DNA of 64,000 nucleotides from Candidatus Latescibacterota bacterium (lineage in GTDB: Bacteria; Latescibacterota; UBA2968; GCA-2709665): contig CBDDDZ010000003.1 in assembly GCA_965226795.1 (NCBI GenBank), positions 352,001 through 416,000 on the forward strand, written 5' to 3'. The position numbers and the translations under genes are program-made. The notes beneath the pieces are model-generated. The model was given only the letters and a program-made list of their open reading frames with translations. It searched no databases and had not been told where the DNA came from. This document shows, in pieces, positions 39,911 through 47,583 of the stretch (the first letter of the stretch is position 1; every line of letters begins with the position of its first letter).

Positions 39911-40761
39911 TCACTGTTTTGTCGTCAAATTCCATCCACCTCCGTCTTTGAGAATTAGCTTCATATTCCCGTCCTGATCCGTTCGGTATACCTTGTTTCC
40001 CTTGTTGGAACCGCCAGAATATTTCTCGTATAGTTCGATGGCCTTAGAGTTGGGGTGGCCGTGTGGGTTATCACCAACGGACACAATTGTCATCGCTGGA
40101 TCCATCGCTTCTTAACGTGATCAACGTAGTAGTGTTTTTCATCTTGGGGGTCATCGAAAAACGTGCTTGATCCATGATGGCCTGCTAAAAGTATGTCGCA
40201 CAAGAGTTCACTATTGTTGTAGTCTTCTTTAACTGCATATCTCCATGTCTCAGCATCGCTATCGCCCGTAAGCATTACGCTTCCTTCTCGCGAGACGTCG
40301 TTTGCACTACGTTGCTCAACCTTAAGTACTATGCCTTGCGCGTTGGCGTTTTTGGGTAGTCGTTCGTCTCGCGCACTCAGAAAGCGAAATCGTGTGCGAC
40401 CAAATCCCTGGCGCTTCAACTTCTCTTTGAGAACCGCGCCGACGGTTCTCCTTAGCTGCATGTATTGACGATATTCCGGGGCGTCAATCGAGGTTCCTGG
40501 ATGCCCGCTATCCCAGATCTTCTTAATGGGAAAGTATTCGTTTAACTTGGTTATACCGCGAATATGGTCGGCGTCTCGGTGAGTGCATACAAACGCGGCT
40601 AATATAGACTGCCAACCGATCTGTCTAGCGACGTACTGTAATACTCTATCTTCGTTCTCGTCGGTGATGTTGCAATCAACGACAAAATTGTCTCCATTTG
40701 CCGCTTCAATTAGCGACATGTTGCCCTGTCCAACGTCTATGAAATGTACAATCGTACTCAT
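39911..40761 (-). pseudogene. ComEC/Rec2-like MBL-fold hydrolase, frameshifted near 40107
   Basis: HFIDVGQG, THRDADH, LTGD, GHHGS; continues in the 39911-40105 frame with SVG.NPHGHP and YRTDQDG. Confidence 0.85.
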
Positions 40762-40850
40762 TGTTGGATACTCCACTTCAAGAACTCGAATCTAAAATGC
40801 GTCAGTGTAGATTGCTATTGCATGGAGATCACTTGCTACGAAACTTCCAT

Positions 40851-41603
40851 TTAGTTTTGGCAACTATCAGTGAGATCGTCCCTGTTAAGGCCTACAACCG
40901 CCGCGAAAAAACTTTCTGCGTAACGATCGGCCTTTTGGCGAGTATACTTCGGTAGGATGTATCCTAAGATTACAGTTCCCACCGCGATGAGTGTAGAAAT
41001 GAATGCCAAGAGTGAAGAACCGTTCTGACAGAGATATGTTACCCAGCATCCGACGAGGCTGGCCATAGCGAATGTAATCCACACGCATCTGAGCCCCGTC
41101 AAATTTCGCGCAAACCCGTAGTCGCTGTTGTGTAGACGTACCCGCTCCCCGATAGGTGATTTCCACAACCGACTGCGAAGCTCACTGAGAGCATCGTTAA
41201 TCACGGCCTCAATCTCGTGTTCATTGCCAGTCTCGACGGCTTGAGCGATGTCAAGGCCAACCAAGTCCTTTATGACCTGATACCAACGCTTTTTTTGTTG
41301 ATCGGAAGTTGAATTATCGTCTGGATGGAGCCATCGGTTCGTCGGAGCGTCGTGGGGCCAGGCAGGCCACATTTTTGACTGCAATCGATTGCCAAATGCC
41401 GAAGCAAGATGAGACGCGAATACAGCTAGAAGGGTACTGAACACAACGTAGGACACAAGAAGCTTCACAATTCCGAGAATCGGGATACCGAATGCAACTG
41501 CGACGGTCCACAACGGTAGAACAGAAAGTGCGGCAGGGATAAAACGGGCTTTTCGTTCGTATTGGTCACTCAGGTTTAGGTAGTTGAGCCATCCCTTATT
41601 CAT
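40851..41603 (-). CDS. Four-TM membrane protein, candidate defence effector
   Basis: Two N-terminal and two C-terminal hydrophobic helices; ARFIPA and N.DYGFARNL.G motifs; start overlaps the upstream stop. Confidence 0.75.
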   Translation of the reverse strand: MNKGWLNYLNLSDQYERKARFIPAALSVLPLWTVAVAFGIPILGIVKLLVSYVVFSTLLAVFASHLASAFGNRLQSKMWPAWPHDAPTNRWLHPDDNSTSDQQKKRWYQVIKDLVGLDIAQAVETGNEHEIEAVINDALSELRSRLWKSPIGERVRLHNSDYGFARNLTGLRCVWITFAMASLVGCWVTYLCQNGSSLLAFISTLIAVGTVILGYILPKYTRQKADRYAESFFAAVVGLNRDDLTDSCQN

Positions 41604-43881
41604 TCGCTATCGCCTCACGTTGGAAGGTGCTTTTCTCCGTTTTGCCAATGTAAAATCCAATATCTCGCCCTTCCCCCACTATTGTCATCGTTGCTGGGTA
41701 GCCGTCGGCTTGCATCAGTTCCTCAAGCCATGCAAGAACCTTCAGATCGTCCTTGCTTGGCTTCGTGCCTGCACCGCTCGGATGTGAATGCCATTCGCCC
41801 ACATACTCAATCATGCCGTGGACTACTTTGGTACGTTGTGCGACTTTCTCCGAAAGCCCCTCACATCCCCGGATGTATAGAGTAGGCCATTCTTCGCTAT
41901 CAGGTGGCGAAGGCAACGCATCGACGACATAGACGATACGTCTCTCCATATCGAAGGAACCCAGTAGAACGCCACCAGTTTCGTTTGGAAGTTTGGATTG
42001 ACGCACACGCGAGAGGGTCTCTATTACGACGTTGTCAGTGACAACTGTCCAATCGTTGGTAATTTTACGCACAACGGGGGCGGGGGATACTTTGACACGA
42101 TTTACGACACCGTCCTCGTTTGAACGCCAGATCGTAATTTGTGCGTCAGCACACCGTACGGCATCGCATACTGCTCTCCCGCCATTGCTCGCGTGAAGAC
42201 CTACCATGTATTGGGGGAGTATGCTTGTGATATCCCGACAGGATTGGGCATAGCGATACCTCCCGGGTGGCTTGTCAAGATGTCCTGACAAGCATCGGTT
42301 GTTTAGAACGGCTCTATAGTACTGCATTTCGAGGGCATCGACGGTAATGTTTCGTTGCTTATCTTCCGCGAGCAGAACGAGGTCTTTCCCGGACGGCGAC
42401 AGGAATAGCGAGATCCTCCGCGCTGTGCTATTGCAATCCTGCGCAATCATCCGTGCAACGCCAACCGATGCCGACATGTCTAGGATCAGGTCGGCCTTAG
42501 CCAGCGCATTGGATAGTTCTTGAGTTCGTCCACCAGGGGATAGCACATTTACTGGAAATGAGCTAAACAGGTCGGAACCGAAAATTATAGTATTCGCTAA
42601 GTGTGCAACGGCATCTGCCTTGTTCCAACCCACAAAACTACCGTCGAGGGCATGCCGGGCTAAATTGTGTGGCAATAGTATGTCGTGATCGATCAGTGTC
42701 CAAGTACCAAACCCTGTTCTCGCAATATTGATTGCAACTTGGGAACCAAGCGCACCCATACCGATCGCAACAACCCTCATATCGACCAATTCATCCTCGC
42801 CATTGAGCTTGGCTGCCATTGAGCGATCGAGGTGATGAACCAGATTCAGCACTGCTATGTCTACATCGTCGCCCGTTTTCGATGTGTCGGGCGGCAATAA
42901 ATAGCCAACCTCTTCTCCCAGTAAATCCCAAAGGCCGATCTTGGCGCCCAGTTGGCGAATTTGCAAGCCCTCAGCACTCTTGTCTTCTGCACTATCCAAA
43001 AGCAAAAACGCCCAACTATCAACTGCCTCGCTCTCTTCTTTTTCATGCCGCATTTTTGGAAACAAAATAACGACGAGAAGATTGGCGTCGAGAACAGATC
43101 TGTCCGTCTGATGCCAGGTCTGGAGACGTTTTCGTAATTCAGAAATAAGGTCGACCTTGGCAACCGCCGTCATGGCAGCAAGGTCAGCAAGTGTCGACGG
43201 AATTTGATGAATGACCCCATGCGTCTGAGGTTCGCAACGATGTACACTTGCAAGTAGCGGCGGCGGTCCTTCATGCGGTTCGCCTGTTAGTGCGATCAGA
43301 AAAAGGCCTTTACTATTATTGTCCGATGTCACCGAAACTACGACTAGCGGGGTTGGTAGGCGCTTCTCCAATTGTTTGGTAGAAGGAAGGACGATGTGCC
43401 CGTGGAAATCCATAAGAAGGGGTTCAAGAGGTTGGTCGTCCTGGTGGAGTTTTCCTTGACTGTTTAAGGATAGCCACCGACGGATGTCGTGGACGAACCT
43501 AGGGGAAGTCCAGCATCGCTTGATTTCCTCGTAAGGTTCTTCGTACACACACATATTTCGAGGATACTCTTGCCGGTGCAGATTGAGGTGCGGCACTCGC
43601 GGGAAATTAACACGTAGGGCATGGACAACAGGTACGTTGTCGTCCTCTTTAGTAAACGACGCGGATATGCGCTCTGTTGCCTTGATCGGGTAACGCTGCA
43701 CCTGTGCGATTTCAACGTCGACCTCAAACACCACAATTTCAATTTTATCCCGCTTACGACATTCGACGAACCGGGCAAAGTCAATGCGCTCAGCCGATAG
43801 ACTGAGCGCGAGATCCTTGGCCTTTGAAATCTCAAGGTCGTTTGGCCGGACGACGTCCCCCGAGACATCAAAATAGCTCAT
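41596..43881 (-). CDS. E2 - ThiF/E1 - JAB fusion (Cap2-Cap3-like)
   Basis: E2 FPRVPHLN...MCVYE; E1 GMGALGS and LIDHDILLPHNLARH; JAB ETGG, EWHSHP, PSKDD. Confidence 0.92.
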   Translation of the reverse strand: MSYFDVSGDVVRPNDLEISKAKDLALSLSAERIDFARFVECRKRDKIEIVVFEVDVEIAQVQRYPIKATERISASFTKEDDNVPVVHALRVNFPRVPHLNLHRQEYPRNMCVYEEPYEEIKRCWTSPRFVHDIRRWLSLNSQGKLHQDDQPLEPLLMDFHGHIVLPSTKQLEKRLPTPLVVVSVTSDNNSKGLFLIALTGEPHEGPPPLLASVHRCEPQTHGVIHQIPSTLADLAAMTAVAKVDLISELRKRLQTWHQTDRSVLDANLLVVILFPKMRHEKEESEAVDSWAFLLLDSAEDKSAEGLQIRQLGAKIGLWDLLGEEVGYLLPPDTSKTGDDVDIAVLNLVHHLDRSMAAKLNGEDELVDMRVVAIGMGALGSQVAINIARTGFGTWTLIDHDILLPHNLARHALDGSFVGWNKADAVAHLANTIIFGSDLFSSFPVNVLSPGGRTQELSNALAKADLILDMSASVGVARMIAQDCNSTARRISLFLSPSGKDLVLLAEDKQRNITVDALEMQYYRAVLNNRCLSGHLDKPPGRYRYAQSCRDITSILPQYMVGLHASNGGRAVCDAVRCADAQITIWRSNEDGVVNRVKVSPAPVVRKITNDWTVVTDNVVIETLSRVRQSKLPNETGGVLLGSFDMERRIVYVVDALPSPPDSEEWPTLYIRGCEGLSEKVAQRTKVVHGMIEYVGEWHSHPSGAGTKPSKDDLKVLAWLEELMQADGYPATMTIVGEGRDIGFYIGKTEKSTFQREAIANE

Positions 43882-45017
43882 CTTTGGCTACCTGCCCTCG
43901 GTGCGCGCCCTGACGTAGCGATAATTCCCGCGCTTACCACACTCTTTTTCAATGTTGCTTTGCTTTGTCCGATTTCAATCACCAACGGCTTAGGTGAGTT
44001 ACGTGACGGATGTTCCATCGTGACGACGAATTGCCCAACGAGGGCACGCGTGACGTCCTTGTAATAATTCGCAGCCTGTCGATGGGGTGGCTGCGAGTCC
44101 TCGTCTTCGTTACTACCTCCTACGGGAATGGGCTTGCTTGTTGATACCGCGATCGCCCCACGGTGTCCCTTTTTTTCGCATAGCCGCGCCACCTGAGTCA
44201 CGGGTGTGGTTTTGCTTGTGCCCTTTTCGGATCCTATGGAAAGATAGCTGCAGTGGTGGGGAATCTTGAGGATATCCCATTCAAGGTATTCTTCGTTTCC
44301 CTTGAACTCGGTAACGTCAACAATCTGTGACAGCACTTCATGGGTGGAATCAGCCAACATCAGCACTTTGGTATGTACTCCTGCGACATCGAAGGTTGCA
44401 TGCAGCACAAGCGAGTCCTCGTTCCGATCCTCGACCGGTTTATCGTTCTGTCGGATAGCAAATGGCGAGTGAACAAAAAACTCGATATGATCTTTACACA
44501 GAGAAAACTCAGGTGCGATCTCTCCCGCATCCGTAATCAAGTGAAGCCGGTCGTGGAGCTTCATGTCATTTTTTTCGCACCACTTCTCCAACCGTTCCGG
44601 CCGGGAGAAAACACGGATCCCTTTCGCCTGGCGGAATCGATAACGAGCCTCTTTCTGCAAAATGCGCGCCTCATCATCGTCAGGGCTCGTCTCCGTGATG
44701 AACGCAGAGGGCACCCACATCATGTTCATCTTGATGCGTTTTCCAACTTGGTACTTCATCGCATGTTCAAGGTAAAAGAAGTCGGAGGCCCCCTTGAAGT
44801 GATCTTTATCCAGGTGACTGAACGCTACGACGTCGAAGTAGTCACGATTGTTCTTCTTTAGGCCGTCTTTGAGGAGTTCCGGAAGGTCGCACCTAAGGTC
44901 ATTGTCGTCATTTTCATCTTTGGTTGCAGCGTAATCGATAAGGATTGTACGGTCACACGACAGTTCAATGCGACAGCAGTCGGCGTTTCCCAAAGGGAAA
45001 AAGGTCATTGTATGCAT
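43878..45017 (-). CDS. MBL-fold metallohydrolase
   Basis: FFPLGNAD, SHLDKDH, KIPHHCS; C-terminus APRAGSQR; ATGA overlap with the E2-E1-JAB gene. Confidence 0.88.
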   Translation of the reverse strand: MHTMTFFPLGNADCCRIELSCDRTILIDYAATKDENDDNDLRCDLPELLKDGLKKNNRDYFDVVAFSHLDKDHFKGASDFFYLEHAMKYQVGKRIKMNMMWVPSAFITETSPDDDEARILQKEARYRFRQAKGIRVFSRPERLEKWCEKNDMKLHDRLHLITDAGEIAPEFSLCKDHIEFFVHSPFAIRQNDKPVEDRNEDSLVLHATFDVAGVHTKVLMLADSTHEVLSQIVDVTEFKGNEEYLEWDILKIPHHCSYLSIGSEKGTSKTTPVTQVARLCEKKGHRGAIAVSTSKPIPVGGSNEDEDSQPPHRQAANYYKDVTRALVGQFVVTMEHPSRNSPKPLVIEIGQSKATLKKSVVSAGIIATSGRAPRAGSQR

Positions 45018-45215
45018 TTTAGCCTCCAACAGGGGTAGTGTTTGTAATTGTCATTTCACGTGAGTTTGGCGAACCGGGAAATGCCGGCCTAAACCGAAAT
45101 CCCAGATTGTCCGCCCAAACCTCCAGCGATGAATCACGCTGATTATCGCGTATGTTTCGGCGATCACTATCCATCTTGATGTCCGGATGACTAACGTCAA
45201 CTATATCGAACCTGG

Positions 45216-46466
45216 TTAAATTCCGTTACTTCCTTCATCGTCGAGGCTCAGGTCGGAAACCGCGTCATCCACTTCGCCGGCATCCACATTCAACATGCCG
45301 ACTAAGTCGATAAGTTCGGCACGGGAGATTCTTTTCCGCCTTAATGCTTCCAGGGCTAACCCGACAAACCGGTCGCGGAATTCGTTACGCAGAGCCTGGT
45401 GGTCCGGTTCCGGAAAGCCCAAGAGCTGCTCCAATTTACGCCCCTTATCCATTCTCTCTTGTTCTAACAGGCTCTCGAGTTCGCTAGCTGTGAGGAGTCG
45501 GGTGCTTCTCAGGCGATAGCAGGCGGCGATTCGGCTGACGCCGAAGTGGTGCGCCATACGCACTACATCGTAGAGCTGTATTTTCTGGCTTCCTGCGGTA
45601 GATCGAGCCCGCCCACGAATTGGCGATCCCTCATCGAACACTTCGGCTTCCATACGGCTGGGTCGCCCCTTTCCGGAAGCGTGGATAAACTGGCGCACTG
45701 CCTCAGCAGGCATCAGAAAGCTGGCGGCAAAGGAGTTGGCACGGACCTCACGTAACTGATCTCGGTCGTGCTCTCGACTGACGAAACCGCCGTGGTCTCG
45801 GTCCATAAGCACGTGACAATATTCGTGTGCGTACGAGAATCGCCTGCGCGAAAAATGGTGCTCCCGATTTGCTACAATGAGGACTCCGATCTCCTGCTTG
45901 ATGAGTGTAAAACCTGATACGTCGTCCGGCAACGTGACCAAGGCAGTACGAACGTCCTGCGATTCGAGAAGCTGGGCGATTTCGGAGATTGACGTAAGGC
46001 CGAGCCCAAGGCGGCCGCGTTCTTCCATTGCGACGCGTTCACCTTGTTGAATAGCCTCCCACGTGGTGCGTGGTTGTGGAAGCGGGTACGCCGCGACTGT
46101 AACTAGATCGCGGTCAATATCCAGCAATTGCTCAAGTCTGGTCATTTCCCGGCCCAAAGCTAAACACCGGAGGAGGGCCTCTCGCAAATCCTCCTTGCTC
46201 GACAGATCCGGGTGAAGTCGGTACAACGCGACGAGTGCATTCTCCTCTTCAGGTTCCTCCTCCGCCACAAAGCTCTGCAGATCCTTACCGAAGAGGATGG
46301 CAAGGCGAAACAGTTCAATACCGTTGACCGTACGGTTGCCCAGTTCGATCTGTGCCACAGTAGAGCGCGAGACTCCGAGGTGATTTGCAACCTCGTCTTG
46401 GGTCAGGCTGCTGGATTCTCTGGCGCGCCTAAGCCTCTGGCCCAACTCTTTATGGTCAATTGCCAT
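45216..46466 (-). CDS. XRE-HTH plus ImmA/IrrE (M78) metallopeptidase fusion
   Basis: LTQDEVA..LGVSRSTVAQIELGNR HTH; RRFSYAHEYCH; EVRANSFAASFLMP. Confidence 0.92.
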   Translation of the reverse strand: MAIDHKELGQRLRRARESSSLTQDEVANHLGVSRSTVAQIELGNRTVNGIELFRLAILFGKDLQSFVAEEEPEEENALVALYRLHPDLSSKEDLREALLRCLALGREMTRLEQLLDIDRDLVTVAAYPLPQPRTTWEAIQQGERVAMEERGRLGLGLTSISEIAQLLESQDVRTALVTLPDDVSGFTLIKQEIGVLIVANREHHFSRRRFSYAHEYCHVLMDRDHGGFVSREHDRDQLREVRANSFAASFLMPAEAVRQFIHASGKGRPSRMEAEVFDEGSPIRGRARSTAGSQKIQLYDVVRMAHHFGVSRIAACYRLRSTRLLTASELESLLEQERMDKGRKLEQLLGFPEPDHQALRNEFRDRFVGLALEALRRKRISRAELIDLVGMLNVDAGEVDDAVSDLSLDDEGSNGI

Positions 46467-46553
46467 TTCGCCCCTAAGATCATGCCGTAGATTTGCACCG
46501 TGTTCCGCTACACCAAATAGGCGATCGTCGTCGGAAGACTTAATCCGAATGGA

Positions 46554-46594
46554 AAGATAGCTATTCGAACACTATTTGTCAACTTTGGACAAAT
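46554..46594 (-). promoter_or_regulatory. Sigma-70 promoter with operator overlapping the -35
   Basis: Minus strand TTGACA(46582-46577)-17-TATCTT(46559-46554); inverted repeat ATTTGTC-N7-GACAAAT at 46574-46594. Confidence 0.65.
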
Positions 46595-47150: not shown

Positions 47151-47431
47151 ATGACACTGATCTACTCAACTTCTGAAGCAAAGGCGCGGTTTTCGGAGGT
47201 CATCCGTGCAAGTGCGCGAAGGCAGGACCGTCACGGTTTCTTTATCGAGGAGAGCCCGTGGCTGAGATCCGCGGAATCCAGCGTCACCAGCAGACGACGA
47301 TCGAAGAGCGACTGGACGATCTCCAACGACGCGGGGTCCTGGTGCGATCGGGAGCGCCAAGGCAGGCGTTTCAGCCAGTGGCGCGTCGGCCGGGTGCCCT
47401 GGCGCGGTTCCTGGCTGAGCGTGGCGAATGA
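47151..47431 (+). pseudogene. Phd/YefM antitoxin with two frameshifts
   Basis: STSEAKARFSEVIR / QVREGRTVTVS / YRGEPVAEI...GALARFLAERGE*. Confidence 0.8.
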
Positions 47432-47583
47432 GCGCGGCGAACGTCGATACGTCGGTATTGGCCGCCATCGCCTTCGACGAACAGAACCCCGGCGAACTCC
47501 TGCTCTTCACGCTTGACGACCGATAGTGCGCTGTGGCCGCCGTGCTCGGCTTTGTCACTCCGGAGGGACTGTATTCGCTATGA
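47428..47583 (+). pseudogene. VapC/PIN toxin remnant (internal deletion plus TAG)
   Basis: MSAANVDTSVLAAIAFDE joined directly to FTLDDR*..AAVLGF; ATGA coupling to the antitoxin. Confidence 0.7.

Follow-up and report, generated by a model that had tools for sequence, protein, structure and literature searches.

The DNA analysed here (the window) is a stretch of 64,000 nucleotides from a Candidatus Latescibacterota bacterium (contig CBDDDZ010000003.1, positions 352,001 to 416,000 of the forward strand). Five co-oriented genes, all on the minus strand, are found within positions 39911-46594 of the window and are listed with their associated features in Table 1. This co-orientation, and two gene overlaps, had been put forward in the original prediction and are borne out by the ORF coordinates: the gene for the first MBL (MBL1) and the gene for the E2-E1-JAB triple fusion, together referred to as the core, are joined by an ATGA overlap, and the core and the membrane-protein gene by an overlap of 8 bp. 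MBL1 starts at an ATG with a ribosome-binding site at position 45017, and an in-frame TTG is located at 45029. Sigma70-like sites numbered 10 in the region versus 7.1 +/- 2.7 in shuffles, so that the promoter candidate in Table 1 is a weak one; neither promoter nor terminator counts were higher than in shuffles.

Table 1. Features of the five-gene operon in the window, in the direction of transcription.
Feature	Position in window	Strand	Basis
Sigma70-like promoter candidate 5' of the regulator	46554..46582	-	Consensus match only, 10/12
XRE-HTH/Peptidase_M78 regulator	45216..46466	-	Pfam HTH_3 and Peptidase_M78; PADLOC RmrA, capP and capH matches
MBL1 (6A-MBL enzyme)	43878..45017	-	NF058524, 391 bits versus cut-off 220
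Arg-Ala-Gly conjugation motif of the MBL1 tail	43890..43898	-	Homologue tails and predicted model
E2-E1-JAB triple fusion (6A-MBL cap2_3)	41596..43881	-	NF058523, 624 bits versus cut-off 320
Membrane protein, four-helix, putative effector	40851..41603	-	Unannotated MBL-associated family; homologue loci
MBL2, second ComEC-like MBL	39911..40761	-	Lactamase_B, ComEC_Rec2 and PDC-M48B matches

The GC content is 0.510 in 39911-46594 versus 0.584 across the remaining window, and the third-position GC of the operon (0.50-0.60) is below that of moeA, hsdM, the Fic gene, hsdR and an MFS gene (0.66-0.81). The lower-GC DNA predicted between hsdS and hsdR is therefore real, but its limits are not those of the operon, as hsdS itself is likewise low in GC (0.514) and the low-GC stretch thus begins earlier. 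The operon is placed inside a type I restriction-modification locus, together with AbiE, a PD-(D/E)XK gene and Fic (Pfam). The restriction-modification genes are scattered over 21 kb (window 31269-52482) by cargo comprising an HTH gene, an AbiEi/AbiEii pair, the PD-(D/E)XK gene, a small lipoprotein-like ORF, the 6A-MBL operon and Fic; the C-terminal end of HsdR is a Schlafen/AlbA_2 domain. A decayed Phd/VapC-like pair and the Fic gene are located between the regulator and hsdR; the decayed antitoxin/PIN-like pair (window 47151-47558) has frame breaks, as judged by eye from its translation, and its longest ORF gave no Pfam match. As had been predicted, no gene for a CD-NTase or a beta-grasp ubiquitin-like protein is visible, neither in the ORF list nor in a Pfam scan of the ORFs of at least 80 aa. 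A core orthologue was found in one of 14 same-genus genomes searched, which marks the core as an accessory element. In viral contigs, one MBL1 locus was found, ending at the contig edge.

Both core proteins score above the cut-offs of the NCBIfam models for 6A-MBL (Table 1), and the core is therefore assigned to this named system, whose name had been given correctly in the original prediction. Like 6A-MBL, the window encodes E2, E1 and JAB in one chain and in that order (Pfam Prok-E2_A, ThiF, Prok-JAB) beside a specialised MBL whose gene adjoins that of the ligase through the ATGA overlap, and a ubiquitin-like gene is absent; the catalytic residues are intact and the MBL carries a glycine tail. 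The E2 cysteine (C111), the E1 GxGxxG motif (374-379) and the JAB residues (E634/H698/H700/D712), described as intact in the original prediction, are indeed present and, together with the E1 cysteine C548, invariant in 46 aligned homologues. The best match of the fusion protein among PDB sequences was Cap2 (E 1e-11). The two-gene operon is type 6a in Table 1 of Iyer, Burroughs and Aravind 2006 (PMC1779556), the relevant passage of a review credits the anti-phage activity of P. aeruginosa 6A-MBL to van den Berg et al. 2024 (PMC13276650), and a preprint, where it touches on the system, counts 6A-MBL among the known jumbo-phage defences (10.1101/2025.09.30.679545). The core is thus already known, and with its core catalogued the locus alone would be ordinary; the membrane-protein addition is unannotated. 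Beyond the 6A-MBL genes, the window has this membrane gene, a fused regulator and, as an optional part, a second MBL. No description of a third gene, an optional second MBL or a fused regulator of 6A-MBL was found in the searchable literature, a scope outside which the naming paper and its supplements lie, and a term search of the Ledvina preprint gave no mention of an MBL.

MBL1 carries the motifs HxDxDH, D227 and HH258-259. Its predicted model (pLDDT 89.9) matched best with the MBL domain of ComEC (9IC4, E 1e-13) and next with Pce, and according to this model MBL1 is a ComEC/Pce-type phosphodiesterase fold. Residues 364-383 of the model have a pLDDT below 50 and represent a disordered tail. 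Among 47 distinct full-length MBL1 homologues, the sequence Arg-Ala-Gly (RAG) forms the end of 36, is followed by 2-6 residues in nine more and is not found near the end of two, i.e. it lies within the last nine residues of 45 of the 47; a 46-row alignment, built without the two homologues that lack the motif, shows it unchanged in every row. The MBL1 of the window has three extra residues (SQR) after RAG, so that processing by JAB would be needed. As a control, a terminal Gly is found in two of 34 second-type MBLs, one of which adjoins a lone E2; the pertinent part of Jenson et al. describes the same terminal contrast for cGAS with versus without Cap2 (PMC10097602). Judged by its tail, MBL1 is probably the conjugated protein and stands in the place of the cyclase, as the original prediction had it. 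This idea is already in print, in a passage of Ye et al. according to which a fused E2-E1 serves to conjugate the signalling enzymes of the type II CBASS, Pycsar and MBL pathways (PMC11601596). A CBASS that lost its cyclase was also considered and was rejected, as the tail and the profiles show the MBL as the partner.

For the membrane protein, no match was found in PADLOC, in NCBIfam or among PDB sequences, Pfam gave two sub-threshold matches only, and the protein atlas only hypothetical clusters. Its all-helical predicted model (pLDDT 95.6) gave no Foldseek match at E<=0.001, and the best VIA-align Z was 7.0 (a helical hairpin); these results do not make the fold new. The predicted four transmembrane segments agree with four hydropathy peaks in the protein of the window, but not with the family average, which has three. 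The family is large, with 1895 relatives (E<=0.001) found among representatives at 50% identity. Its predicted co-occurrence with the core was found in metagenome loci with a homologue of the membrane gene (n=80), 64 of which touch a core, in two gene orders (53 directly after E2-E1-JAB and 11 directly before MBL1); in another four the sole partner is an adjoining second-type MBL, and the remaining 12, most of which sit at the ends of contigs, have no partner. With near-identical copies merged (95% identity), 64 clusters remain, 51 of them in contact with a core.

Core loci located via the MBL or the ligase numbered 41 (19 from a genome scan, three relatives, eight from family searches, and 11 plasmid loci taken from the top 21 of 74 matches for genus spread); one plasmid locus and the three relatives among them were fetched after the membrane-gene search. 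The locus sample is weighted toward close relatives, and some loci that entered the counts had also served to build the profiles for patatins, distant membrane proteins and MBL2. A third gene is present in 39 of the 41 cores. It encodes a membrane protein in 22 cases (20 of the membrane family of the window, two of an unrelated membrane gene) and a patatin in 17 (12 as a separate gene, and five fused to E2-E1-JAB, the fusion being recognised by Pfam for three loci and by motif for two). Two cores, L178 and the fragment L019, are without an adjoining effector, and in L164, L167 and L179 a membrane gene and a patatin are both nearby. The conserved unit is three genes: an MBL, an E2-E1-JAB protein and one effector slot. 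The fused patatin is C-terminal on E2-E1-JAB in one frame of 1080-1230 aa (L162:4920-8618, L165, L166, L167:5317-8553, L168:4120-7665), and the fused ligases adjoin a divergent MBL. The unrelated membrane genes in the slot (L180:9341-10033, L181:8516-9103) represent a second unannotated membrane family.

On an MBL1 tree of 45 hand-labelled rows (without near-duplicates or broken genes, and with ten rows that were located via the membrane gene), the effector label switches nine times, and at least seven of these switches are forced by strongly supported branches; the labels are nonetheless clustered beyond chance (one of 500 shuffles as low). The MBLs of L011 and L012 are 85% identical and their effectors different, and L180/L182 are another close pair with different effectors. 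Such swapping between unrelated folds is better explained by a diffusible trigger than by a fixed protein interface, and this pattern of genes suggests CBASS-like signalling to a cell-killing effector that can be exchanged.

The operon is probably, though far from certainly, a CBASS-like circuit in which a conjugated MBL takes the part of the cyclase and sets off an exchangeable effector that damages the membrane; the retention of the glycine tail in core-linked MBLs, compared with its rarity in other MBLs, supports this reading. By homology to the chemistry of Cap2/Cap3, JAB would trim the MBL1 tail to Gly, and E1 would adenylate MBL1 and pass it via C548 and the E2 C111 onto a target, with JAB as the reversing enzyme. 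Conjugation might then prime MBL1, as the cyclase is primed in type II CBASS. On infection, MBL1 would make a small product that diffuses and turns on the third gene, a step to which we give about an even chance; that such a product activates the membrane protein we infer from the gene pattern. The third gene (membrane protein here, patatin elsewhere) would damage the membrane and abort the infection. MBL2 would be an optional extra, either a second sensor for the same effector or an enzyme clearing the signal, and the HTH-peptidase a locally recruited regulator.

With type II CBASS the operon shares a Cap2-like E2-E1 and a Cap3-like JAB, an enzyme with a conserved terminal glycine, a swappable patatin (cf. 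CapV) or membrane effector, and the existence of E2-only versions. It differs from type II CBASS in that the Cap2 and Cap3 functions are fused, that no CD-NTase was found in the operon (ORF list, Pfam, PADLOC; a SMODS gene is located on another contig), and that none of the CBASS effector models of PADLOC matches the membrane protein; the likeness in effector signalling is one of gene pattern only. The operon is also different from Bil/Bub systems, as there is no beta-grasp ubiquitin-like domain in its five proteins.

The MBL domain of ComEC is a nuclease, and since MBL1 and MBL2 resemble the ComEC and Pce hydrolases, MBL1 could act directly. MBL1 would then itself be the effector, a nuclease or phosphodiesterase activated by conjugation that destroys phage or host nucleic acid, and the membrane protein and the patatin would be helpers or back-ups that answer the damage without a dedicated signal. 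The closest folds of MBL1 are in line with this explanation, as is L178 with its core alone; furthermore, just two 6A-MBL family models in NCBIfam match these proteins, which fits a tested two-gene form and speaks against a three-part circuit. We nevertheless regard an effector role of MBL1 as rather unlikely, because the slot is occupied in all but two of the cores, the third gene is sometimes fused into the ligase, and it was retained through the change of gene order (11 loci).

MBL2 has no glycine tail and a weak match to PADLOC PDC-M48B (E 2e-14). Of the metagenome loci that have both core and membrane gene and leave room of 500 bp or more for it, MBL2 follows in 12 of 43, these 12 forming two clusters at 80% membrane-protein identity, and 31 are without it. 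The MBL2s of the window, L001 and L005 are distant from one another, so MBL2 was recruited more than once. By its distribution, MBL2 is an optional accessory. The fused regulator is co-oriented upstream in one of 61 core loci, with two more having weak divergent matches. On these two counts, and with a core that is named and reported as phage-tested, the five-gene layout as a fixed, undescribed system was rejected. In the present assembly, the MBL2 frame is broken near 40109. The break is in contig X1 and is absent from X2 (same sample) and X4 (other study), contigs that are about 93% identical and both contain MBL2 and the membrane gene; contig X3 has only pieces of the stretch, does not span the break and was not used. 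With two of three covering contigs unbroken, the frameshift was rejected as proof of a dead gene; it may be an error or a polymorphism, the contig depth being low (4-7).

Two nested systems in a defence hotspot, i.e. a two-gene 6A-MBL and a separate, PDC-M48-like unit of membrane protein and MBL2, would be an improbable explanation in view of the 31 loci with room but without MBL2, the 8-bp overlap of the membrane gene with the core, and the close homologues of the membrane gene that come after the core across several phyla. It is nevertheless what the closest relative, L001, might suggest: DNA homology of about 82% over the regulator, MBL1 and the core ends at the end of the core, and the genes that come next are a remote homologue of the membrane gene (probability of 72% in hhalign) and a different MBL2. 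Similarly, when 30 membrane-family loci were picked regardless of their neighbours, 10 lay near a core, 16 near an MBL that has no such core (five of these 16 had seeded the MBL profile, and are independently named MBL by RefSeq) and four near neither. The MBLs beside such stand-alone membrane genes match PDC-M48B, with up to 497 bits; the tested membrane homologues, in contrast, match no PDC-M48 model, and in the window there is the weak component B match of MBL2 and no match for component A. A literature search on the name PDC-M48 found no paper.

In the same neighbour-blind sample, 26 of the 30 loci have the membrane gene within 1.5 kb of a core or a lone ComEC-type MBL, which speaks for the CBASS-like circuit. 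A family almost never without an MBL is also what would be expected for a toxin needing a guard, and the membrane protein could accordingly be the conjugation target, or a toxin checked by the MBL product, which fires once phage disturbs the MBL or the ligase; the ligase-fused patatin would likewise join effector and conjugation site. However, the exchange of unrelated effectors beside near-identical MBLs is at odds with a specific interface, and the lone MBL partners are without a glycine tail, so that direct contact or guarding is considered very improbable.

The circuit with a signal-generating MBL might extend beyond 6A-MBL. ComEC-type MBLs could be the signal generators of an unrecognised CBASS-like second-messenger family with minimal (MBL and membrane effector), E2-only and long 6A-MBL forms, in which membrane and patatin effectors swap freely, extra MBLs are further sensors, and the membrane protein, which has no close solved fold, is the receptor of a messenger made by hydrolysis and not by a cyclase; we put this forward tentatively, as a possibility somewhat short of an even chance. 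The third gene is what matters at this locus, and it provides a sharp, testable case for a signal: should 6A-MBL depend on an exchangeable effector, a small molecule is its probable output, and it would come from a fold more familiar as a destroyer of such signals. An E2-only counterpart of the operon is found in L039:4257-7752 (a Gly-ending MBL, a short CBASS-type E2 on its own, the membrane gene and another MBL), and L172 resembles this layout. L150, L154, L156 and L171 lack a ligase and carry, after the membrane gene, two ComEC-like MBLs that differ from each other; in L154, a patatin-like gene is found farther along.

The regulator carries the peptidase motif HEYCH at 214-218 and is, from its sequence, likely a stress-cleaved autorepressor of the CapH/CapP or RmrA type. 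As in these, an XRE HTH and an M78 peptidase are encoded upstream of an immune operon; unlike these, the regulator of the window is fused and co-oriented, and its paralogues in this family precede a PIN-like gene. Split, divergent versions precede 6A-type cores in L035 and L175, and plasmid cores have split HTH/peptidase or WYL regulators instead. The regulator of the window is, on this comparison of loci, a local accessory. No PIN remnant was found behind it. Elsewhere in the same genome (contig C4, L187:1-2652), a regulator paralogue with 38% identity is located before a PIN-like gene and a SMODS-type CD-NTase, the latter apparently split over two frames.
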